Part shown: positions 14,386 through 64,000 of the stretch, in pieces
Numbering within the stretch: the stretch's first letter is position 1
Layout: every line of letters begins with the position of its first letter
Source of the DNA: Eubacteriales bacterium
Lineage (GTDB): Bacteria > Bacillota > Clostridia > Oscillospirales > UBA644
Reading direction: 5' to 3'
Length of the DNA: 64,000 nt
Assembly (NCBI GenBank): GCA_045637625.1
Contig: JAZTZU010000040.1
Coordinates: 38,474-102,473 of the forward strand
The notes under the pieces: model-generated
Databases searched by the model: none
Told to the model about the DNA's origin: nothing
The model's input: the letters and a program-made list of their open reading frames with translations, nothing else
Position numbers and translations under genes: made by a program

Positions 14386-15195
14386 ATGGAAACAAAAGAA
14401 TTTGCCAAAGAAATGCGTAAATTGATTCTGGAAGCTATTTACAACTCAAAGAGCGGTCATCCCGGTGGCTCTCTTTCATGCACAGATATTCTCGCTGTGC
14501 TCTACAACGAAGAAATGAGAAGAGATGCAAAAGATCCCAAGAACCTCGACAGAGACAGATTTGTTCTCTCAAAAGGTCATGCTTGCCCCGCCATGTATGC
14601 GGCTCTCGCACTCAAAGGTTACTTCCCTGTTGAAGACATCAAAACATTCAGAAAGATCGACAGTTACCTTGAAGGTCATCCCGATATGAAACATATCCCC
14701 GGCGTAGACATGAGCACAGGCTCTCTCGGTCAGGGCGTTTCTGCTGCTTGCGGTATGGCTATCGCAGGAAAAAAACAGAATAAGGATTACAGAGTTTATA
14801 CAGTTCTCGGCGACGGTGAGATCGAAGAAGGTCAGTGCTGGGAAGCATTCATGTTCGCTGCACATTATAAACTCAGCAACCTCTGCGTTTTCATCGACTC
14901 CAACGGTCTCCAGATCGACGGTGATGTAAACGAAGTTATGTCTTCTGCTCCTCTTGCAGATAAAATGAAGGCCTTCGGATTCAATACTCTTGAAATCGAC
15001 GGACACGACTTTGACGCTATAAGAGGCGCTCTCAAAGCAGCTAAAGAATGTACAGACAAGCCCACTGCCGTTATCGCAAAAACAGTTAAAGGCAAAGGCG
15101 TTTCCTTCATGGAAAACCAGGCTGGCTGGCACGGTATAGCACCCAACAAAGAACAGTACGAACAAGGTATCAAGGAGGTCGAAGCAAATGGCTGA
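14386..15195 (+). CDS. transketolase, N-terminal (TPP-binding) subunit
   Basis: SGHPGGSLSCTDILAVLY, GDGEIEEGQCWEA and a length of 269 aa are typical of split transketolases in Clostridia. Confidence 0.9.
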   Translation: METKEFAKEMRKLILEAIYNSKSGHPGGSLSCTDILAVLYNEEMRRDAKDPKNLDRDRFVLSKGHACPAMYAALALKGYFPVEDIKTFRKIDSYLEGHPDMKHIPGVDMSTGSLGQGVSAACGMAIAGKKQNKDYRVYTVLGDGEIEEGQCWEAFMFAAHYKLSNLCVFIDSNGLQIDGDVNEVMSSAPLADKMKAFGFNTLEIDGHDFDAIRGALKAAKECTDKPTAVIAKTVKGKGVSFMENQAGWHGIAPNKEQYEQGIKEVEANG

Positions 15196-16165
15196 GATGA
15201 AAGCTCAAAGAGATGCATACGGTGAAGTTCTTATTGAACTCGGAAACAAGTACGAAAATCTTTTCGTTCTCGATGCAGACCTTACAAAATCCACAAAAAC
15301 TGCAGATTTCAAAAAAGCTTTCCCCGAAAGACATATCAACTGCGGTATCGCTGAAGGCAACATGATGACAACAGCAGCAGGTATTGCTACTTGCGGAAAC
15401 ATCGTTTTTGCTTCCACTTTCGCAATGTTTGCTGCAGGTCGTGCTTACGAACAGATCAGAAACAGTATTGCATATCCACACAACAACGTAAAAGTCGTTG
15501 CAACTCACGCAGGTCTTACAGTAGGTGAAGACGGTGCTACTCACCAGTGTCTTGAAGACATAGCACTCATGAGAGCTGTTCCGGGAATGATCGTTCTCGC
15601 TCCTTCCGACGCTGTTCAGACAAAAGAAGCTTGCCGTTTTGCAGCAGAATACGACGGACCTGTTTACATCCGTGTGGGCAGACTTCCCATTCCTGTTGTT
15701 TACAAAGAAGAAGATTACAAATTCGAACTCGGCAAGAGCGAACAGTTGGCTGACGGTAAAGATGTTACTCTTATGTTCTGCGGTCCCTTCTACGCTTTGG
15801 CGTGCGAAGTTAAAGAACTTCTTGAAAAGAACGGTCTTACAGCAAGAATCGTTGATATGCCCTCAATCAAACCCCTTGACACAGATGCTGTAAAAGCGGC
15901 TATCGAAGATACTGGACTTATCGTTACCATTGAAGACCATAATGTTTACGGAGGTCTCGGAAGCGCAGTAAGCGATGCTCTTGCAGAACTTGACATTTGC
16001 AGAAAGAACGGAACAGAGATCATTAAGATCGGTGCTCAGGACAAGTTCGGAACATCCGGAACACCTGCGGAGATCCTCAAGGCTTACGGATTTGATGCAG
16101 TTGAAATTGCAAAAAAGATCATCAAAACAAAATGCCCCGAATTCGCCGGTGAATTCAACTTCTAA
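15188..16165 (+). CDS. transketolase, C-terminal (pyrimidine-binding) subunit
   Basis: GGAGG RBS and an 8-nt overlap with the N-terminal subunit. CGIAEGNMMTTAAG...THQCLEDIALMRAVP motifs. Confidence 0.9.
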   Translation: MAEMKAQRDAYGEVLIELGNKYENLFVLDADLTKSTKTADFKKAFPERHINCGIAEGNMMTTAAGIATCGNIVFASTFAMFAAGRAYEQIRNSIAYPHNNVKVVATHAGLTVGEDGATHQCLEDIALMRAVPGMIVLAPSDAVQTKEACRFAAEYDGPVYIRVGRLPIPVVYKEEDYKFELGKSEQLADGKDVTLMFCGPFYALACEVKELLEKNGLTARIVDMPSIKPLDTDAVKAAIEDTGLIVTIEDHNVYGGLGSAVSDALAELDICRKNGTEIIKIGAQDKFGTSGTPAEILKAYGFDAVEIAKKIIKTKCPEFAGEFNF

Positions 16166-16186
16166 GAAATTTATATTTTAAATAAT

Positions 16187-16256
16187 ATGGGAAAAACTTT
16201 CTTTTCACGAAAAAGAAAGTTTTTCCCATACCCTTTTCAAAAAACCGGTTCCCCGA
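16187..16256 (+). repeat. hairpin-plus-tail 3' element, copy 1
   Basis: ATGGGAAAAACTTTCTTTT-CACGA-AAAAGAAAGTTTTTCCCAT followed by ACCCTTTTCAAAAAACCGGTTCCCCGAC. Starts 22 nt after the transketolase stop. Confidence 0.85.
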
Positions 16257-16387
16257 CAAAATATCATACGCCACTATGACACAAAAATTTCATGAAACAT
16301 ATTTGATTTTTCATCGTCTAAATTTATAAGAGGGACAGAAACCCCTCCGTTTCACGATATTGTTTGAAATTTCCCTTAATTAGCACC

Positions 16388-16416
16388 TTGATTTTTCATA
16401 GGTTTTGTGGTATAAT
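16388..16416 (+). promoter_or_regulatory. putative promoter of the sortase gene pair
   Basis: TTGATT (16388-16393), 17 nt, TATAAT (16411-16416), with a TG-containing spacer end. Confidence 0.5.
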
Positions 16417-16524
16417 TACGGGTGGTTCAAACTTCATCAAAAAACGACACGGTCGGAACCTGAGTCACAACACATTCTGAACCGTGTATATTCTTCTGAA
16501 AACAGACTATGGAGGCTAATTTTA

Positions 16525-18165
16525 ATGCAGACAATCAAAACAAGAACAAGATTTATGGCGCTGCTCCTTTGTTTCGTAACGGTATTTTCGCTTATTACCG
16601 CCTGCGGCAAAGACGAACAGCCGGAACAGAAACTTGTTAAGTCCATAACACTTAACATGACAGAATACACTTTCACAAGCTATGACACAACCGTTAAGCT
16701 TGAAGCTTTTGCAATTCCTTCAGATGCCGACAACGCAAACGACCTTGTATGGCAGAGTGCAAATGTCAACATTGCATCTATCAACGCAGATCACGAAGTA
16801 GTACCGATGTCCAACGGTAAAACAGTTATTACTGTTTCCACATCCGACGGTACAGTAACTGCGATGTGCAACATTACAGTTGACGTTGAAGAAGTTGTTG
16901 AGATACCCAATATCCCCGTTGAAAGCGTAAGAATCAACTCAGAATCTTATACATTTGACGAGATCGGTGACACATACAGATTAACAGAAGACGTTCTTCC
17001 CTTCTCCGCAACAAACCCCTCTGTAGTATGGTCATCCTCAGACGAATCAGTTGCGACCGTTGATGCAGCAGGTCTTGTTACTGCAATCAAAAAAGGTACT
17101 GCAACGATCACAGTAACAACAAATGACGGAGGATTCACCGCATCCTGTCAGATCACAGTTGAACCCAAACCCGAAACACCGGCAGTAGATCCCGACAACG
17201 GAAACCAGAGTCAGGGTAACAGCGGTAACTCCGGAAACACCGGAAACAGTGGCAACTCCGGAAACACTGGAAACAGTGGCAACAGCGGCAACTCCGGAAA
17301 CACAGGAACTTCAACAACAAAATTTGACAGAGAAAAGTACTTTAAACCCGTTATTGACTCCGCAGGATATCTTGTAAGCGACGGTCTTGAATATTTCAAC
17401 AGCTACAACCCCGACTGTGTTGCATGGCTTTACATCCCCAACACTAAAGGTTCCGACGGTCTCGGTGAGATCAACTTTGCGGTAGCTCAGGGCAATGACA
17501 ACGAATTATATCTTTCCGTAGGTCTCGATAAAAAGTGGAAAGACGAAGGTTCTGTTTTGGTTGACTACCGAAACTCAATCAAATCCTCAGGCGGTAAGAT
17601 CACAGATAAAAACACAATCTTCTACGGTCACGCAAAAGGAAAAACAACTTTCGACAGACTTGAATTTGCAACAAGATCCGATGAATGGTTCAGCAAAGAA
17701 AGCAACAGATATGTATATCTGAACACCCTCACAGAAGAAACTGTATGGAAAGTCTTTGCATGCTACTACACAGACTCTTCTCAGCACTATTACCTCGATA
17801 TCAACTGGCTTTGGGATACAGAAACATTGAGCGCTCTCCAGGAGACCTTGACAACAGATGAAAAGCTCGAACTTATTCTCGACGAATCCGGAAAGAAAAT
17901 GATGAACTTTATCAATGACGGTAAAACATTTGCTTCTTTCGCAAACAACTGGAGACAGAGAATCAGTACACCTGAAAACGACAAGGAATACGAAACAACT
18001 TACAAGCCTTATGCTCCCATTCTCAGAAACAGAGATTACGGAGTAACTGTAGGTCCCGATGATCAGATCATCACTCTTTCAACATGTTCTTCCGACGTAG
18101 GTAATATGAGATATGTTCTTCATGCTGTTCTTGTTCAGTCAAGACCCAGAACAGACAGAGACTAA
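16525..18165 (+). CDS. lipoprotein with two Big_2 (Ig-like) domains, GNS/GNT linker and C-terminal class B sortase domain
   Basis: ATG 16525 with GGAGG 9 nt upstream. Signal plus lipobox FSLITAC. Two repeats of the Big_2 pattern (VWQSANVNIASI..., VVWSSSDESVATVDAAGLVTAIKKGTATITV). The sortase B blocks VAWLYIPNT...AVAQGNDNELYL...LVDYRN...TIFYGHAKG...ITLSTCSSDVGNMRYVLHAVL are present, with His, Cys and Arg (Cys+8) in place. Confidence 0.75.
   Translation: MQTIKTRTRFMALLLCFVTVFSLITACGKDEQPEQKLVKSITLNMTEYTFTSYDTTVKLEAFAIPSDADNANDLVWQSANVNIASINADHEVVPMSNGKTVITVSTSDGTVTAMCNITVDVEEVVEIPNIPVESVRINSESYTFDEIGDTYRLTEDVLPFSATNPSVVWSSSDESVATVDAAGLVTAIKKGTATITVTTNDGGFTASCQITVEPKPETPAVDPDNGNQSQGNSGNSGNTGNSGNSGNTGNSGNSGNSGNTGTSTTKFDREKYFKPVIDSAGYLVSDGLEYFNSYNPDCVAWLYIPNTKGSDGLGEINFAVAQGNDNELYLSVGLDKKWKDEGSVLVDYRNSIKSSGGKITDKNTIFYGHAKGKTTFDRLEFATRSDEWFSKESNRYVYLNTLTEETVWKVFACYYTDSSQHYYLDINWLWDTETLSALQETLTTDEKLELILDESGKKMMNFINDGKTFASFANNWRQRISTPENDKEYETTYKPYAPILRNRDYGVTVGPDDQIITLSTCSSDVGNMRYVLHAVLVQSRPRTDRD
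17215..17307 (+). repeat. in-frame tandem repeat encoding (GNS/GNT)n
   Basis: 93 nt encoding GNSGNSGNT GNSGNSGNT GNSGNSGNSGNT G, made of 27/27/36-nt imperfect units. Confidence 0.9.
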
Positions 18166-18186
18166 GATAAAGAATGGAGTAAAACA

Positions 18187-19467
18187 ATGGCAGATATCGA
18201 TAACAAAAACGAAACAGCGGTAAATGAAGCCGCAGAAACAAAAGCTCCCGCAAAGAAAAGCGGAGGCAAAAACAATATAATCAGAATCGTTATCCTTGTA
18301 CTTTGCATCGGAGTTTTCGCTTTCTCCGTGTTCAAGATCGGAAGTGACCTTGTGGACGACAACTCTACAGGAGATGAATACAACGATCTCCACGAACTCG
18401 CAGGAAGAGATGAAGTAAACAACGATACACCAACAATTCCCGATGACTCTCAAAACAACAACGAATCTCAGGGTTCTGAAAACAACAACGAAAAAGATCC
18501 CGTTGAACCGACTGATCCCGATCCTGTTGAACCAAATGTTCCCGATGATTCTCAGTCTTCCGAAAACACGGAAACACCCACAACACCCGAAAATCCCGGC
18601 GACAGCACAGAAACACCCGATGATAACACAAATGTTCCCGACAACAGCACGGAAACACCTGACAATACACAGACTCAGACACCTTCAACTGATCCGATGA
18701 ACCCCAGTTCATACAACGACCAGACTGCTGCTGAAGCTGAAAAGGATAAAACTCAGAATGCAATTGTTACAGTAACAAGACCCAATGCATCTCTTGACAA
18801 AACAGACCTTTCAGTTATCCACCCAGACAACATCAAACTTGAAGATATTGCATATCTCAGCGGAATCGACTTCAAAAAGCTTGAACAGAGAAACAGCGAT
18901 ACAGTTGCATGGATCTGCATCCCCGGCAATGACTCAATCACAGGTCTCCCCGTAGATACTGCGGTTGTTCAGACTACAGACAACAGCTACTATCTCTCCC
19001 ACAGCTTCGATAAGTCCGACAATGTAAACGGTTGGATCTACGCAGACTACCGCAACAACATGTCAAATATCACATCAAACTACAACACCGTAATTTACGG
19101 ACACGCAAGAAGCTACCGTATGTTCGGCGGTTTGAAGAACCTCAACGCAACACCTGAATGGTACAAAAACGGATACAACCACTTCATCAAGATCTCAACA
19201 CCCAATGAAGAAACTATCTGGCAGATATTCTCATGGCACGAAACAAACGTTTACTATAACTACATTCAGACAGAATTTACAAGTGCTCAGGAATTCATTG
19301 ATTTTGCAACTGAACTTCAGGACAAAAACGAACTGAAAGGTTATTTCTCAACATTCGAATTCTCTGAAAACAGCAGAATCATTACCCTTTCAACATGTAA
19401 AGGTTCCAACCCCGCAAACAGAGTTGCCGTGCATGCAGTTCTCGTTGCAAGAAACCCTCTCAAGTAA
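18187..19467 (+). CDS. membrane-anchored class B sortase homologue with long acidic Pro/Thr/Asp-rich stalk
   Basis: N-terminal TM segment IIRIVILVLCIGVFAFSVF and a low-complexity stalk of roughly 150-170 aa. Sortase B blocks TVAWICIPGN...VVQTTDNSYYL...YADYRN...TVIYGHARS...ITLSTCKGSNPANRVAVHAVL. Confidence 0.75.
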   Translation: MADIDNKNETAVNEAAETKAPAKKSGGKNNIIRIVILVLCIGVFAFSVFKIGSDLVDDNSTGDEYNDLHELAGRDEVNNDTPTIPDDSQNNNESQGSENNNEKDPVEPTDPDPVEPNVPDDSQSSENTETPTTPENPGDSTETPDDNTNVPDNSTETPDNTQTQTPSTDPMNPSSYNDQTAAEAEKDKTQNAIVTVTRPNASLDKTDLSVIHPDNIKLEDIAYLSGIDFKKLEQRNSDTVAWICIPGNDSITGLPVDTAVVQTTDNSYYLSHSFDKSDNVNGWIYADYRNNMSNITSNYNTVIYGHARSYRMFGGLKNLNATPEWYKNGYNHFIKISTPNEETIWQIFSWHETNVYYNYIQTEFTSAQEFIDFATELQDKNELKGYFSTFEFSENSRIITLSTCKGSNPANRVAVHAVLVARNPLK

Positions 19468-19482
19468 TTTAATACTTATTTT

Positions 19483-19542
19483 ATGGGAAAAACTTTCTTT
19501 TCACAAAAGGAGGTTTTTCCCAAACCTTTTTCGGCTGAAACC
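19483..19542 (+). repeat. hairpin-plus-tail 3' element, copy 2 (most diverged)
   Basis: ATGGGAAAAACTTTCTTTT-CAC-AAAAGGAGGTTTTTCCCA, in which the two non-Watson-Crick positions are T opposite G. Tail AACCTTTTTCGGCTGAAACC. Starts 16 nt after the sortase stop. Confidence 0.75.
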
Positions 19543-42238: not shown

Positions 42239-42273
42239 GATAAAGTAGGTATGCGTATTATATCTACTTTATC
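42239..42273 (+). terminator. possible terminator hairpin after aspS
   Basis: GATAAAGTAG / CTACTTTATC 10-bp stem with a 15-nt loop. AT-rich but no clean U-tract. Confidence 0.35.
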
Positions 42274-50907: not shown

Positions 50908-50945
50908 GATGCCCCACATGAGTTTCGACACTTGTGTGGGGCATC
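50908..50945 (+). terminator. stable hairpin after htrA (possible terminator)
   Basis: GATGCCCCACA (50908-50918) / TGTGGGGCATC (50935-50945), a perfect 11-bp stem. No U-tract. Confidence 0.4.
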
Positions 50946-59962: not shown

Positions 59963-60751
59963 ATGATCATAGATTTTCACGTTCATACATTCCCCGACAA
60001 ACTTGCTCCGAGAGTGATTCCAAAGCTTTCCGAAGCTGCCGGAATTGAACCTCAGACAGACGGAACGATAAATGACACTCTGGAAAAAATGAAAGAGTGG
60101 GGCGTTGACAGAGCTGTGATCCTGAACATTGCAACAGCACCGACTCAACAGAACACGATAAACAGCGTTGCAGCTGAGAACAATCATCTTCCGCTTTATA
60201 CTTTCGGCTCGGTTCATCCCGACGGAGAGGATAAAATATCCGAATTAAAAAGAATAAAGGAACTTGGACTTTACGGAATAAAGATGCATCCCGAATATCA
60301 GCAGTTTTATGTGGATGACGAAAAAGCTCTTCCCATTTACGAAGAATGTTCAGCACTTGGTCTTCCCATAGTTTTCCATGCAGGATGAGACCTCGGTTTC
60401 GGACCTCCGGTACACGCAACACCCGACAGGATAAGGAAGATAATAGACATGTTCCCCAAGCTGACAGTTATTGCGGCACATTTCGGAGGTTACAGATGTT
60501 GGGACATGGTCGAGCATTTCCTTGTCGGAAAAAATATCTACTTCGACACATCCTTCACGGCCAATGAGATTGACCCCGAAAGAATGAAAAAAATGATCCT
60601 GAAACACGGCTCAGACAAAATTCTTTTCGGCTCTGACTGCCCATGGAAAAAGATGTCGGACTCCATCATACAGATTGAAAAAATGAATTTGCCAGTATCG
60701 GATACAGAAAGAATTTTCAGCCGGAACGCATTGGAGCTTTTGGACAGATGA
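59963..60751 (+). pseudogene. TIM-barrel metal-dependent amidohydrolase interrupted by a single in-frame TGA (60386-60388)
   Basis: Track ORFs 59963-60388 and 60449-60751 are in the same frame, and I found no other stop between them on hand checking. The read-through product ...LPIVFHAG*DLGFGPPVHATPDRIRKIIDMFPKLTVIAAHFGG... is collinear with intact amidohydrolase-2-like proteins (MIIDFHVHTFP start). Confidence 0.6.
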
Positions 60752-61049: not shown

Positions 61050-62849
61050 ATGGCAGAAAAAAGAATTATTGGTGATTACCCCGTTATCGGCATCAGACCC
61101 ACAATCGACGGAAGAAGAGGCGTTCTGAAAGTACGCGAAAGCCTTGAAGATCAGACTATGGGTATGGCTCTTGCCGCAAAAAAACTTTTCGAAGAAAATC
61201 TCAGATACTCAAACGGAGAACCCGTAAAAGTAGTTATTGCAGACACAACTATCGGCAGAGTTGCAGAAGCTGCTGCGTGCGCTGACAAATTCAAAAAAGA
61301 AGGCGTAGACATCACTCTTACAGTTACTCCCTGCTGGTGCTACGGCGCTGAAACAATGGATATGGATCCAATGACGATCAAAGGCGTTTGGGGCTTCAAC
61401 GGAACAGAAAGACCCGGTGCGGTTTACCTTGCATCCGTTCTCGCAACACATGCACAGAAAGGACTCCCCGCATTCGGCATCTACGGTCACGATGTTCAGA
61501 ACGCTGACGACAAAAATATTCCCGCAGACGTAGAAGAAAAACTTCTCAGATTCGGTCGCGCAGCTGTTGCGGCAGCATCCATGAGAGGCAAATCATACCT
61601 GCAGATCGGTTCTATCTGTATGGGTATCGGTGGCTCAATTATTGACCCCAACTTCATCGAAGACTACCTCGGCATGAGAGTTGAATCCGTTGACGAAGTT
61701 GAAATTATCCGCAGAATGACAGAAGAAATCTACGATAAAAATGAATACGAAAAGGCTCTCGCATGGGTAAAAGCAAAATGTATTGAAGGCTTCGACAAGA
61801 ACCCCGAAGAATATCAGAAATCCCGTGAAGCTAAAGACGGTGACTGGGAATTTGTTGTTAAAATGATGTGTATCATCAAAGACCTCATGAACGGCAACAA
61901 GAATCTCCCCGAAGGCTGCGAAGAAGAAATGGTTGGTCACAACGCTATCGCTGCAGGCTTCCAGGGTCAGAGACAGTGGACAGACTTCTATCCCAACTGC
62001 GACTTCCCCGAAGCAATGCTCAACTCTTCCTTCGACTGGAATGGTGCTCGTGAACCCTACATTCTCGCAACAGAACACGACGTACTCAACGGTATCGGCA
62101 TGCTCTTCATGAAGCTTCTCACAAACAGACCTCAGATGTTCGCAGACGTAAGAACATACTGGAGCCCCGAGGCTGTTAAAAATGCAACAGGCTACGATAT
62201 CGAAGGTGTTGCAAAAGAATCCGGCGGTTTCATCCACCTCATCAACTCCGGTGCTTGCTGCATCGACGCTAACGGCGAAGCTAAAAACGCTGACGGTGAA
62301 GCTGAAATCAAGCCCTGGTATGAAGTTACTGAAGCAGATCAGGAAGCTATCCTTGCAAACACAACATGGAACTACGCAGACCTCGGCTATTTCAGAGGCG
62401 GCGGTTACTCTTCCAGATTTGAAACAAAGCATCAGATGCCTGCCACAATGATCCGTCTCAACCTCGTAAAAGGTCTCGGACCCGTTCTTCAGATCGCAGA
62501 AGGCTGGACAGTAGGTCTTCCCGAAGACGTTTCTGACAAACTCTGGAAGCGTACAGACTACACATGGCCCTGCACATGGTTCGCCCCCAGAACAACAGGC
62601 GAAGGTGCATTCAAGACCGCATATGACGTAATGAACAACTGGGGAGCTAACCACGGTGCTATCTCCTACGGTCACATCGGTGCAGACCTTATCACACTCT
62701 GCTCAATGCTCAGAATCCCCGTTTGCATGCACAACGTACCCGAAGATAAGATCTTCAGACCCGCTGCATGGAACGCATTTGGCATGGACAAAGAAGGTCA
62801 GGACTACCGCGCTTGCGAAACTTACGGTCCTTTGTACAAGAATATATAA
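61050..62849 (+). CDS. fucI: L-fucose isomerase
   Basis: 599 aa. The [29 protein letters not shown]-terminus and overall length match FucI. Confidence 0.9.
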
Positions 62850-62942
62850 TCAGATAAAATGATTTGTGGGGAAAACTTCTTTTCACGGAAAAAGAAGTTT
62901 TCCCCATACCCCTTTCAAGAAAACCGATGTTTGGGCAAAAAA
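62847..62942 (+). repeat. hairpin-plus-tail 3' element, copy 3 (extended form, includes the fucI stop)
   Basis: TAATCAGATAAAATGATTTG-TGGGGAAAACTTCTTTT-CACGGA-AAAAGAAGTTTTCCCCA-TACCCCTTTCAAGAAAACCGATGTTTGGGCAAAAAA. Confidence 0.9.
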
Positions 62943-63090
62943 TAATTTATTTATGCACTCTTTCAAAAAATTCAGTGTGCTTGACACAAAAATCTTTTTA
63001 ACCCTCAATCGTAACAGCTGACGCCCAAACTGTTTGATGGAAATTATTTATTTTCCCAAGCTCGCTTTTCTTTTTCGGGGATCAAAGGGA

Positions 63091-63188
63091 TAATCAGAAT
63101 AAAATGATTTGTGGGGAAAACTTCTTTTCACGGAAAAAGAAGTTTTCCCCACACCCTTTTCAAGAAAACCGATGTTTGGACAAAAAAA
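63091..63188 (+). repeat. hairpin-plus-tail 3' element, copy 4 (direct duplicate of copy 3, 244 bp downstream)
   Basis: TAATCAGAATAAAATGATTTG-TGGGGAAAACTTCTTTT-CACGGA-AAAAGAAGTTTTCCCCA-CACCCTTTTCAAGAAAACCGATGTTTGGACAAAAAA. Confidence 0.9.
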
Positions 63189-63325
63189 ATTTATTTATGG
63201 AGGAACATTTTTGTAAAATTGTTCCCTCACGCTCCTTCTAAAAACTTTTATGTAAAGCATTTTATGTTTTACGGGGATGATAAAAACAACGAAAAAAGAT
63301 TTGCAACGAGTTTTCCCACTAATAA

Positions 63326-63403
63326 ATTGCCCCCCAATTCGGTTTTGTTGGAAAGGGGTATGGGGAAAACCTTATTTTTTCGTGAAAATAAGGTTTTCCC
63401 CAT
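63326..63403 (-). repeat. hairpin-plus-tail 3' element, copy 5 (inverted; 3' of serA)
   Basis: Minus-strand reading: ATGGGGAAAACCTTATTTT-CACGAA-AAAATAAGGTTTTCCCCAT-ACCCCTTTCCAACAAAACCGAATTGGGGGGCAATT. Begins 22 nt after the serA stop. Confidence 0.85.
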
Positions 63404-63424
63404 ATTATATCCAACTGTATTTAC

Positions 63425-64000
63425 TTATCTTGTGGAAACATTCATGATGCCGTCAACTGCCTGGAGTTTTGCAACGATTGCAGCTGCGTCAACTTTATCT
63501 GTAAGGTCGATGATAGCATAGGAGATATCACCTTTACTCTTACTCTGCATATGTTCGATGTTAAGACCCAGTTCACCGCAAGCGGAAGCCATAACACTGA
63601 TCATATTGGGAACGTTCTTATGAAGAACACAGATTCTTGTACCATTGCTTCTTTCGCAAGAAACATTGGGGAAGTTTACACTGTTCACAGTATTACCGTT
63701 TTCAATAAAGTCTGTCAGCTCTTTAACAGCCATTACAGCGCAGTTATCTTCGGACTCCTCTGTGGATGCACCAAGGTGAGGAATAGCGATAACGCCTGCC
63801 ATACCTGCTGTACGTGCATTGGGGAAGTCTGTAACATAACGTCTTACCTTACCGGATTTAAGAGCTTCTTCCATATCATCGTCGTTAACGAGAGCATCAC
63901 GTGCAAAGTTAAGAATGATAACGCCGTCTTTCATGAGAGCGATAGTATCTTTGTTGATCATGTGCTTCGTTCTTACCTTCGGATCGGGATTGTCGATGAG
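63425..64000 (-). CDS. serA: D-3-phosphoglycerate dehydrogenase, C-terminal part (runs off right edge)
   Basis: MKDGVIILNFARDALVNDDDMEEALKSGKV...IAIPHLGASTEESE (2-hydroxyacid dehydrogenase core) plus a C-terminal ACT-like domain. The frame stays open from 63961 to 64000. Confidence 0.75.
   Translation of the reverse strand, partial: LIDNPDPKVRTKHMINKDTIALMKDGVIILNFARDALVNDDDMEEALKSGKVRRYVTDFPNARTAGMAGVIAIPHLGASTEESEDNCAVMAVKELTDFIENGNTVNSVNFPNVSCERSNGTRICVLHKNVPNMISVMASACGELGLNIEHMQSKSKGDISYAIIDLTDKVDAAAIVAKLQAVDGIMNVSTR

Follow-up and report, generated by a model that had tools for sequence, protein, structure and literature searches.

Gene-end elements in the window

The 64,000-nt stretch of contig JAZTZU010000040.1 analysed here (assembly GCA_045637625.1, Eubacteriales bacterium), named the window, contains a short repeated element located mostly just past the stop codons of genes. 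The element is made, in this order, of a 5′ arm, a variable loop, a 3′ arm, a 3-nt turn and a tail. In every copy the tail is the reverse, not the complement, of the 3′ arm of the same copy, and this is the decisive feature of the family. An earlier reading of the same DNA (the original prediction) listed five copies; all five are found again here, and a covariance model adds a sixth, degenerate one (copies 1–6). Other genomes were sampled as 8–21 kb pieces (239 loci, labelled with L-numbers), and relatives were reached through homologues of the window transketolase, for which an exact look-up gave no record. Judged by the nearest of these homologues, the window belongs to an uncultured Clostridia bacterium.

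Copy 1 (16186–16246, plus strand) is constituted of a 20-bp hairpin (16186–16230, loop CACGA) and a mirror tail (16231–16246) reading CCCTTTTC AAAAAA CC. It starts 21 nt past the stop, at 16165, of the gene encoding the C-terminal subunit of a transketolase (15188–16165, plus strand; Pfam Transket_pyr and Transketolase_C), an enzyme of the two-subunit type according to Pfam. About 140 nt after this copy lies a promoter-like site (16388–16416, plus strand; TTGATT, 17 nt, TG-TATAAT), and its conservation in the relative L112 places copy 1 at a transcription-unit boundary. Copy 2 (19484–19542, plus strand) starts 16 nt past the stop, at 19467, of a sortase-domain gene (18187–19467, plus strand; Pfam). 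Its 18-bp hairpin (19484–19522) includes two T·G pairs, both originating from a deviant 3′ arm, AAAAGGAGG, and its aberrant-looking tail, GGCTGAAA, tracks that arm (19525–19542, CCTTTTTC GGCTGAAACC).

The other four copies (3, 4, 5 and 6) are found in the 575-nt gap between two convergent genes, the L-fucose isomerase gene fucI (61050–62849, plus strand; Pfam) and a serA-like gene, of which the window holds the 3′ part (63425–63997, minus strand; Pfam 2-Hacid_dh_C and ACT). Copy 3 (62866–62925, plus strand), 17 nt past the fucI stop at 62849, has its hairpin at 62867–62906, a T-A linker and the tail CCCCTTTC AAGAAAA CC at 62909–62925. Copy 4 (63110–63170, plus strand; hairpin 63110–63153, tail 63154–63170, CCCTTTTC AAGAAAA CC) belongs to the second of two direct repeats of 94 nt (62854–62947 and 63099–63192), the first of which contains copy 3; the repeats are 245 nt apart and 95% identical. 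Copy 5 (63341–63404, minus strand; hairpin 63359–63404) starts 20 nt past the stop of the serA-like gene (63425–63427) and faces copies 3, 4 and 6; its tail (63358–63341) reads CCCCTTTC CAACAAAA CC on the minus strand. In the degenerate copy 6 (63198–63246, plus strand), a variant stem, TGGAGGAAC..GTTCCCTCA (63198–63229), is followed by a tail that goes along with it, GCTCCTTC TAAAAA (63231–63244).

The five predicted copies are thus all recovered. Their arms are of 17–20 nt, and four of the five stems are 100% complementary, the stem of copy 2 being complementary at 89% with T opposite G at its two exceptions. Save for one unrelated palindrome, these hairpins are the top short-range inverted repeats of the window. 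Their RNA folds at −22 to −29 kcal/mol, with z from −4.2 to −8.1 against shuffles (−25 kcal/mol and −6.2 for copy 1, −28 kcal/mol and −8.1 for copy 5), and copy 6 at −8.6 kcal/mol. A covariance model built from the copies of other genomes finds all five on the predicted strand, with scores of 50–72 bits and E-values of 1e-10 to 1e-16 (70.7, 50, 71.2, 72.1 and 68 bits for copies 1–5), and also detects copy 6 (63192–63252, plus strand; 27 bits, E 1e-4). The original prediction also named transketolase, the second sortase, fucI and serA as upstream genes, and Pfam agrees (a sortase-domain protein and a 2-hydroxyacid dehydrogenase with ACT domain for the second and fourth). Its stop-to-hairpin distance of 16–22 nt in sense orientation holds, the copy that it listed last (copy 4 here) has indeed no intact gene upstream, and the compensatory differences that it saw among inner stems are real.

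Stem covariation

Across 72 copies, 96.5% of the cells of the 20-pair stem are paired (87.9 ± 0.4 in shuffles) and 122 cells are altered on both sides (33 ± 5 in shuffles). The closing pair N-N′ takes all four Watson–Crick types (U-A 31, G-C 15, A-U 9 and C-G 7). The outer stem keeps the sequence TGGGGAAAAC/GTTTTCCCCA, in part an effect of ascertainment, and the loop and inner stem vary freely.

The original prediction regarded the two G-U pairs of copy 2 as tolerated only in RNA of sense orientation. A larger sample does not support this argument. In 115 distinct hairpins, a strict count gives 6 isolated mismatches of G·T type and 7 of A·C type, and a loose count 27 and 16, respectively (P = 0.13), without significant asymmetry. 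In this respect the stems are unlike typical RNA helices. In copy 2 itself, the two G residues that create the wobbles are matched by G residues in the tail, so that the wobbles belong to the mirror relation.

The tail as mirror of the 3′ arm

The original prediction noticed that the tail is a near mirror image of the 3′ arm, which is true of every window copy, but missed that the symmetry is the defining feature of the element, that of a third strand. When the reversed 3′ arm is compared with the tail, copies 1–5 score 9–13 and shuffled tails 2.3–3.0 ± 1.3. Individual values are 10 for copy 1 (2.7 ± 1.2 for its shuffled tails), 9 for copy 2 (2.3 ± 1.4), 13 for copy 3 (2.9 ± 1.3) and 10 for copy 5 (3.0 ± 1.2), and the degenerate copy 6 still scores 7 (3.5 ± 1.4). 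Pairing of the tail with the 5′ arm, or a second Watson–Crick hairpin in the tail, was considered and rejected, since only parallel complementarity is present.

In the family at large, the conserved outer part is mirrored (GGGGAAAA / CCCCTTT), and so is the inner part (for example TTCTTTT / AAGAAAA). Outer stems that deviate from the consensus have tails deviating in the same way and at equal distance from the stem base: GAGGAAAA goes with CTCCTTTC, GGGAAAAA with CCCTTTTC, GGGGGAAA with CCCCCTTC, GGGAGGGG with CCCTCCCC and GGGGAAACC with CCCCTTCC. Fisher tests at individual stem levels give P-values of 1e-7 to 1e-2, also on unique combinations of genome, arm and tail. In the ungapped alignment, 91.4% of the outer parallel pairs obey the code (85.6 ± 0.7 in shuffles), with 23 double changes against 6.5 ± 2.0 expected, and register 0 beats every slide. 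The outer-part signal rests on these per-level tests and on the variant stems.

The variable inner stem shows the relation as well. A 5′ segment TTTTTT is accompanied by AAAAAA in the tail, TTTTTC by AAAAAG, TTTTTCT by AAAAAGA, TTTTCT by AAAAGA and TTTCTT by AAAGAA. Window copies 3 and 4 combine TTCTTTT with AAGAAAA, and copy 5 combines CTTATTTT with CAACAAAA. The 'AARAAAA' stretch of the original prediction is not a fixed motif; it mirrors the inner stem of each copy. Altogether, 413 of 483 inner positions are as predicted by mirroring. A tail G stands opposite a 3′-arm G at 17 of 22 positions and elsewhere at only 8 of 444. Matches number 169 (145.4 ± 3.3 in shuffles, none of 5000 as high), and register 0 is again the best. 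At the junction where the 3′ arm takes over the purines from the 5′ arm, a single nucleotide (C) spans two base pairs, and for this reason the T-run of the tail is one shorter than the A-run of the stem.

A metagenome scan for stems beginning GGGGAAG...CTTCCCC, chosen without regard to the tail, brings in long and complex purine arms, and here too the tails follow the arms base by base (TGGGGAAGGGGAGGAGAAAC with CCCCATCCCCTCCTCTTCC, GGGGAAGGGAGAGGGAA with CCCCATCCCTCTCCTTCC, GGGGAAGGGAGGGAAAA with CCCCATCCCTCCTTTTCC, GGGGAAGAGGAC with CCCCTTCTCCT). Shuffling the order of arm nucleotides with composition kept gives P-values of 0.0005 to 0.03 for 11 distinct arm-and-tail pairs representing 8 arm sequences; unrelated hairpins caught by the same scan have background mirror scores. 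In two copies (L017:5190-5295 and L078:7630-7730), the 3-nt turn is swapped for an extra 22-nt hairpin and the mirror tail is kept. To our knowledge, no polymerase-based mutational process makes reversed, non-complemented copies. Selection on a fold that requires the mirror is thus the natural explanation.

Small extra hairpins, GAGACTT..AAGTCTC or GGAGTTAC..GTAACCTCC, occur in the linker or 3′ arm of three copies (L017:5238-5260, L017:7814-7833 and L078:7675-7696), all in one goat-caecum Clostridia metagenome-assembled genome (MAG). They may represent a second small repeat family targeting the element. At L069:3644-3727 and L053:1255-1336, a tail is found on both sides of the hairpin, and the whole forms a longer perfect palindrome.

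Position and direction relative to genes

Gene ends were assigned in most loci by a heuristic, namely a co-oriented open reading frame (ORF) of at least 120 codons ending at most 80 nt upstream. Such an ORF end precedes 71 of the 119 parsed copies, in 69 cases at ≤39 nt, and the spacing from the co-oriented stop codon is 2–39 nt. Sense-only copies number 55, against 15 convergent-only copies, for which the stop distances are widely scattered. Among the metagenome variants, in loci of 59–65% G+C, 8 of 13 sit 5–28 nt past a co-oriented stop and none of the 13 has a convergent stop within 60 nt. The claim of the original prediction, a dispersed family at gene 3′ ends with strand bias, is thereby extended to other genomes. 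The orientation bias is strong but not absolute.

Between convergent genes, two facing copies are often found, one per gene, as at L025, at L016 and in the window (copies 3 and 5). Since neighbouring convergent genes carry oppositely oriented copies, orientation follows transcription, and a replication-strand cause is ruled out; the hairpin by itself is evidently not enough for both directions. The stop codon is not part of the element, with a spacing that varies from 2 to 39 nt and an unconserved 5′ flank. Reading the antisense strand as a peptide or a Shine–Dalgarno sequence fails by eye because of wrong spacing.

As the original prediction stated, no U-tract follows the stems, and the element is not a textbook terminator. 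What follows the mirror tail is A5–6 C T3, a stretch of 76% A/T even in loci of 46% A/T. In 40 kb of the window scanned for canonical hairpin-plus-T-run terminators, no excess was found, and the scan meets the element hairpins only on the wrong strand. Two other gene-end hairpins in the window, at 50908–50945 (gene end 50867) and 42239–42273 (gene end 42227), have neither T-run nor mirror tail. Gene-end hairpins devoid of a T-run, together with the lack of canonical-terminator excess, suggest that this organism rarely uses textbook intrinsic terminators.

The orthologous transketolase (tkt) gene end differs among relatives. The element is present and partly decayed in a 93%-identical relative, a 90% relative has a variant with stem GGGGGAAC and tail TCCCTTC, and an 89% relative has an unrelated G+C-rich hairpin. 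In the closest relative (L112:11060-11240; 93% TktC identity), ∼150 extra nt follow the tkt element and hold a second, oppositely oriented full copy; the window (16247–16280) is without this segment. Comparison of L113:12185-12470 with L115:13322-13391 shows that one relative keeps the tail and the outer GGGG/CCCC clamp of an orthologous copy but has, in place of the inner part, a ∼290-nt insert bounded by terminal inverted repeats of its own (GGGGTGGCTCA...TGAGCCAGCCCC). At L005:1900-2850, three to four tandem units of 271–277 nt occur, three of which end in copies (2110–2181, 2381–2452 and 2658–2729), suggesting that a small gene was duplicated in tandem along with the element at its end. 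In Ruminiclostridium-like rumen MAGs, tandem repeats of ∼21 nt (CTCGAGCGTCAGCGACTAAAA and variants) adjoin copies at L068:7595-7640, L101:5592-5640 and L023:3261-3300.

Spread of the family across genomes

The element family is real and widespread. One genome per species was scanned for the hairpin core alone, ignoring the tail; at least 111 stretches were found, and the mirror tail occurs on 78 copies among the matches listed. A hidden Markov model and covariance-model search of the fetched loci gives ∼140 full copies in at least 45 genomes and MAGs. Carriers, named as in the MAG records, include Oscillospiraceae, Ruminococcus, Acutalibacteraceae, Defluviitaleaceae, Lachnospiraceae and other Clostridia, and also Desulfovibrionaceae, Thermodesulfobacteriota, a 'delta proteobacterium', Hydrogenedentota and a groundwater Verrucomicrobia MAG. 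Copy-bearing loci range from 41 to 65% G+C, each genome has a separate sub-family, and some 8-kb pieces contain 6–10 copies, almost one per gene end. In 2.9 million viral contigs, three hairpin matches were found, none with the tail; the element was not found there, and nothing links it to phages.

The proposal that the element belongs to no known Rfam family stands, with no match to Rfam 15 at gathering thresholds in the window and 14 other copy-bearing loci; in E-value mode, only spurious matches to chance hairpins of miRNA type appeared. A full-text literature search with core sequences returned unrelated primers only, and nothing relevant was found in the literature on repeats of Ruminococcaceae/Oscillospiraceae and on bacterial RNA triple-helix terminators. 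As far as can be told from the searchable literature, itself incomplete, the family is undescribed.

Proposed triplex geometry

The tail is parallel to the 5′ arm and antiparallel to the 3′ arm. It has pyrimidines at the levels where the purine lies on the 5′ (parallel) arm, and purines at those where the purine lies on the 3′ (antiparallel) arm. In the triplex-oligonucleotide work of Beal and Dervan, third strands are said to cross such a purine–pyrimidine junction without a linker. In triple helices, the pyrimidine motif is parallel and the purine motif antiparallel (PMC4666352, PMC13541005); the tail obeys both polarity rules, which points to an alternate-strand triple-helix design. With this architecture, one strand can fold into a hairpin the major groove of which would be filled by its own tail. 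Judged from the sequences, the mirror pattern fits an intramolecular alternate-strand triple helix of ∼15 stem levels.

The design is present on both strands, in complementary form. On the sense strand or its RNA, the outer triplets would be four adjacent C+·G-C plus U/T·A-U/T, with up to 13 protonated cytosines in G-rich variants; at neutral pH, even four of them side by side are unfavourable. On the antisense strand, the template of the upstream gene, they would be G·G-C and A·A-T, then T·A-T, with no need for protonation. The reverse-Hoogsteen triplex is regarded as stable under physiological conditions (PMC4538819). Collectively, the protonation-free triplets of the template strand and the lack of G-U excess favour a putative triplex in DNA rather than in RNA.

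Comparison with known systems

The closest described elements are the BoxC/PIT/TMECO repeats, with which the present family shares the kind and differs in form. Hoyne and Maher (2000, 2002) reportedly studied BoxC/PIT as intrastrand triplex repeats. These repeats of E. coli and other Proteobacteria are known from 262 proteobacterial genomes, and their triplex was shown in vitro (Holder et al. 2015, PMC4666352). Like them, the present element is a short dispersed intergenic repeat in which three consecutive blocks of one strand are a purine block, its complement and a mirror copy; a 3-nt turn precedes the third block, and the complementary strand carries the complementary triplex class. The sequences are unrelated. 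The TMECO consensus, CCCTCNCCC N3–6 GGGNGAGGG N3 GGGNGAGGG (PMC4666352), has no match in the window and one in the 239 loci. The blocks succeed each other as R-Y-Y′ in the sense strand and as RH-R-Y in the antisense strand (class III/I), whereas BoxC is of class II/IV (class II being Y-R-RH). The Watson–Crick blocks are connected by a mirrored inner stem-loop of 14–44 nt, not by the 3–6 nt loop of BoxC, and with its loop limit of 1–6 nt a search of ITxF type would not find the present family. Further differences are the alternate-strand nature of the triplex, the taxa (Clostridia and others as opposed to Proteobacteria) and gene placement, the present family being stop-codon-linked and co-oriented and TMECO showing no distance trend and occurring more often upstream of ORFs (PMC4666352). 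The one BoxC/TMECO-type match, CCCTCTCCCTCCGGGAGAGGGTTGGGGTGAGGG at L103:2674-2706 in a 'delta proteobacterium' MAG, is a separate motif located 60 nt from a copy.

Intrinsic terminators share with the element a stable hairpin located a few to a few tens of nt past the stop, at transcription-unit boundaries and in an orientation-dependent manner. They differ by a U-tract of ∼7–9 nt, in place of which the element stem is followed by A-N-A CCCCTTTC AAAAAA. The element differs also by its A/U-rich stem with a GGGG/CCCC clamp, by conservation of primary sequence across phyla and by the mirror tail.

H-DNA and H-palindromes are homopurine–homopyrimidine mirror repeats. In the element, 3′ arm and tail also mirror each other around a centre of 3 nt. 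Their outermost 8 nt are homopyrimidine, and beyond these the mirror enters a purine segment, so that the repeat as a whole is neither homopurine nor homopyrimidine. The arms of the element are short, and the acceptor duplex can be an intrastrand hairpin.

The ENE of MALAT1 and PAN offers a parallel in RNA, a triple helix carried by a hairpin, located at the 3′ end of the RNA and able in principle to shield it from exonucleases. There, the two strands of a U-rich internal loop clamp a downstream A-rich tract (U·A-U); element stems, in contrast, are continuous and have no U-rich internal loop, and it is the 3′ arm that the third strand mirrors. We know of no ENEs in bacterial mRNAs. No bacterial gene-end case figures in a 2026 review of RNA triple helices (PMC13541005).

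REP, BIME and REPIN sequences with their RAYT transposases are likewise extragenic palindromic repeats, often at gene 3′ ends and with genome-specific sub-families. In REP/REPIN, one end of the palindrome carries a conserved tetranucleotide, GTAG or CGTC (PMC3733652). Present copies are without this tag, beginning N-TGGGG and ending CCCCA-N′, and also differ by long and perfect stems, by the mirror tail and by a core sequence common to several phyla. The idea of a REP-like mobile palindrome, one of the candidate roles in the original prediction, is thus not indicated.

Proposed mechanism and alternatives

Among the roles considered from the outset, that of an unconventional terminator or 3′-end stabiliser remains the most plausible kind. 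It is tempting to propose that the element is a one-way signal for the end of a transcription unit, acting by hairpin and triplex, with the template DNA as the molecule that folds. This proposal is tentative, and our confidence in it falls short of even. RNA polymerase would transcribe the palindrome, then the mirror tail. The palindrome would extrude in the negatively supercoiled wake of the enzyme. The template-strand tail, just vacated, would fold back on its own hairpin through G·G-C, A·A-T and T·A-T triplets, without requirement for acid pH, and the transcript hairpin would form simultaneously. The trapped polymerase would then be released in the A/T-rich stretch that follows (A5–6 C T3). 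An H-DNA model has been proposed in which the structure forms behind RNA polymerase and blocks the enzyme at the downstream flank (PMC4538819). In a variant, the preformed structure may block polymerases coming from the opposite direction. That the copies constitute a whole class of factor-independent, one-way boundary signals working through an alternate-strand triplex, common in Clostridia and in members of several other phyla, is a broader claim that we regard as possible rather than probable.

Several observations weigh against this proposal. About 20–25% of the classifiable copies are antisense or orphan, and where relatives have real gene calls, ∼7 sense copies stand against 3–4 antisense or orphan ones. 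Absence from 2.9 million viral contigs is odd for a generic host terminator, and the proposal does not account for the spread of the copies. The E. coli PIT/BoxC repeats, the closest analogues, have neither terminator nor promoter activity (PMC4666352). The turn is tight, with closing pairs T-A and N-N′ that leave one free linker nucleotide unless opened. An early gapped permutation test on the outer part alone gave no signal, owing to the systematic skip of one nucleotide at the junction and a few parse errors, and the significance of the shuffle tests is inflated to an unknown degree because copies within one genome are related. Finally, formation of the triplex in cells, preference for template DNA over RNA and termination as the outcome are steps that we infer from sequence patterns.

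The principal alternative places the triplex in the transcript and is possible, though in our opinion unlikely. The nascent hairpin would be clamped by the tail, either leading to termination without a U-tract, when RNA is pulled from a weak A/U-rich hybrid, or blocking 3′–5′ exonucleases in the manner of the MALAT1/PAN ENE, when the 3′ end is buried and offers no single-stranded toehold. Bias of strand and position relative to the upstream gene, convergent genes with two copies that face each other, RNA hairpins that are strong and, in secondary-structure prediction, leave the tail unpaired, the A/T-rich stretch (A5–6 C U3 in RNA) after the structure and the sense-strand G-U pairs kept by decayed copies (window copy 2 and L112) are all consistent with it. 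Natural RNAs contain base triples of pyrimidine type as well as of purine type (PMC13541005), and RNA is able to form intrastrand triplexes of the pyrimidine motif (PMC4666352). However, the outer sense part would need the row of protonated cytosines described above, and the inner part would need purine-motif triples, which do not form in RNA according to Holder et al. citing Semerad and Maher (PMC4666352). Absence of a G-U over A-C excess in the 115 hairpins and the recurrent A in 'CCCCAT', a non-canonical triplet in the pyrimidine motif, also argue against an RNA triplex.

Improbable, but with points in its favour, is a structural or selfish DNA repeat of BoxC/PIT kind without a role in gene expression, spreading and persisting in intergenic DNA through its folding or recombination properties, in which case purifying selection would have removed copies in the orientation harmful to transcription and so created the bias. 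Sub-families specific to one genome, tandem units and local duplications, presence or absence that differs between close relatives, near-perfect palindromes without G-U excess and the BoxC-type motif 60 nt from a copy in L103 would all fit, as does TMECO, which is tied to genome rearrangement and has no assigned function (PMC4666352). Orientation filtering alone, on the other hand, would not be expected to produce a stop spacing as tight as 2–39 nt across phyla. Neither the one copy per gene end with its facing pairs nor the conservation of outer stem and tail across genomes of 41–65% G+C is in line with such a repeat.

Very improbable is recognition without triplex of hairpin and single-stranded tail by a protein, be it an HUH/Y1 transposase (RAYT/IS200), an RNA-binding protein on the C/U-rich tail or Rho; the element is extragenic and multi-copy, and HUH enzymes usually act on a hairpin next to a conserved single strand, but a protein predicts a fixed tail, not one changing with its own stem position by position in mirror order, and a GTAG or CGTC tag is absent. 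In bacteria with runaway transcription, Rho is drawn to pyrimidine-rich RNA (PMC13323073), but a Rho loading site would have to be far longer than the free tail.

Significance

Whether triple helices, of DNA or of RNA, have any role in living bacteria is a long-standing question. For the known candidates, BoxC/PIT/TMECO, we are aware of no assigned function and of no evolutionary evidence for the fold. In the present family, and in many genomes, changes in the stem are matched level by level in the putative third strand; in the longest variants, this extends over as many as ∼19 stem positions. Such mirror covariation is the kind of evidence that established RNA secondary structures. Evolutionary evidence for a putative third strand is unusually strong, and the link of the element to gene ends is clear. 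If the triplex reading is true, this would be the first natural-sequence covariation, across dozens of genomes, showing selection for a nucleic-acid triplex in bacteria. With a defined place and direction relative to genes, function is directly testable. If the element is a terminator, it would account for gene ends devoid of a canonical terminator in little-studied Clostridia of gut and rumen, improve the annotation of transcription units in MAGs and provide a compact directional insulator for synthetic biology. Existing triplex finders, which consider short loops only, miss a large family.

Other features of the loci

A separate repeat family was caught by chance in the metagenome scan. It consists of a hairpin, TGGGGAAGAGTGTCTCC..GGAGACACTCTTCCCCA, with a conserved flank, ATTCACCACAGACTCCAACAACAGTA, and no mirror tail, and is found at loci L128, L137, L172, L180, L228 and L235.

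In the window, two adjacent ORFs on the same strand (59963–60388 and 60449–60751) match the N- and C-terminal halves of one Amidohydro_2 domain and are probably a frameshifted or interrupted gene, or the result of a sequencing error. Two consecutive large sortase-domain proteins are encoded at 16405–19467. Unusually for a sortase, the first of them also contains a Big_2 domain together with a short repeat of collagen-like type.

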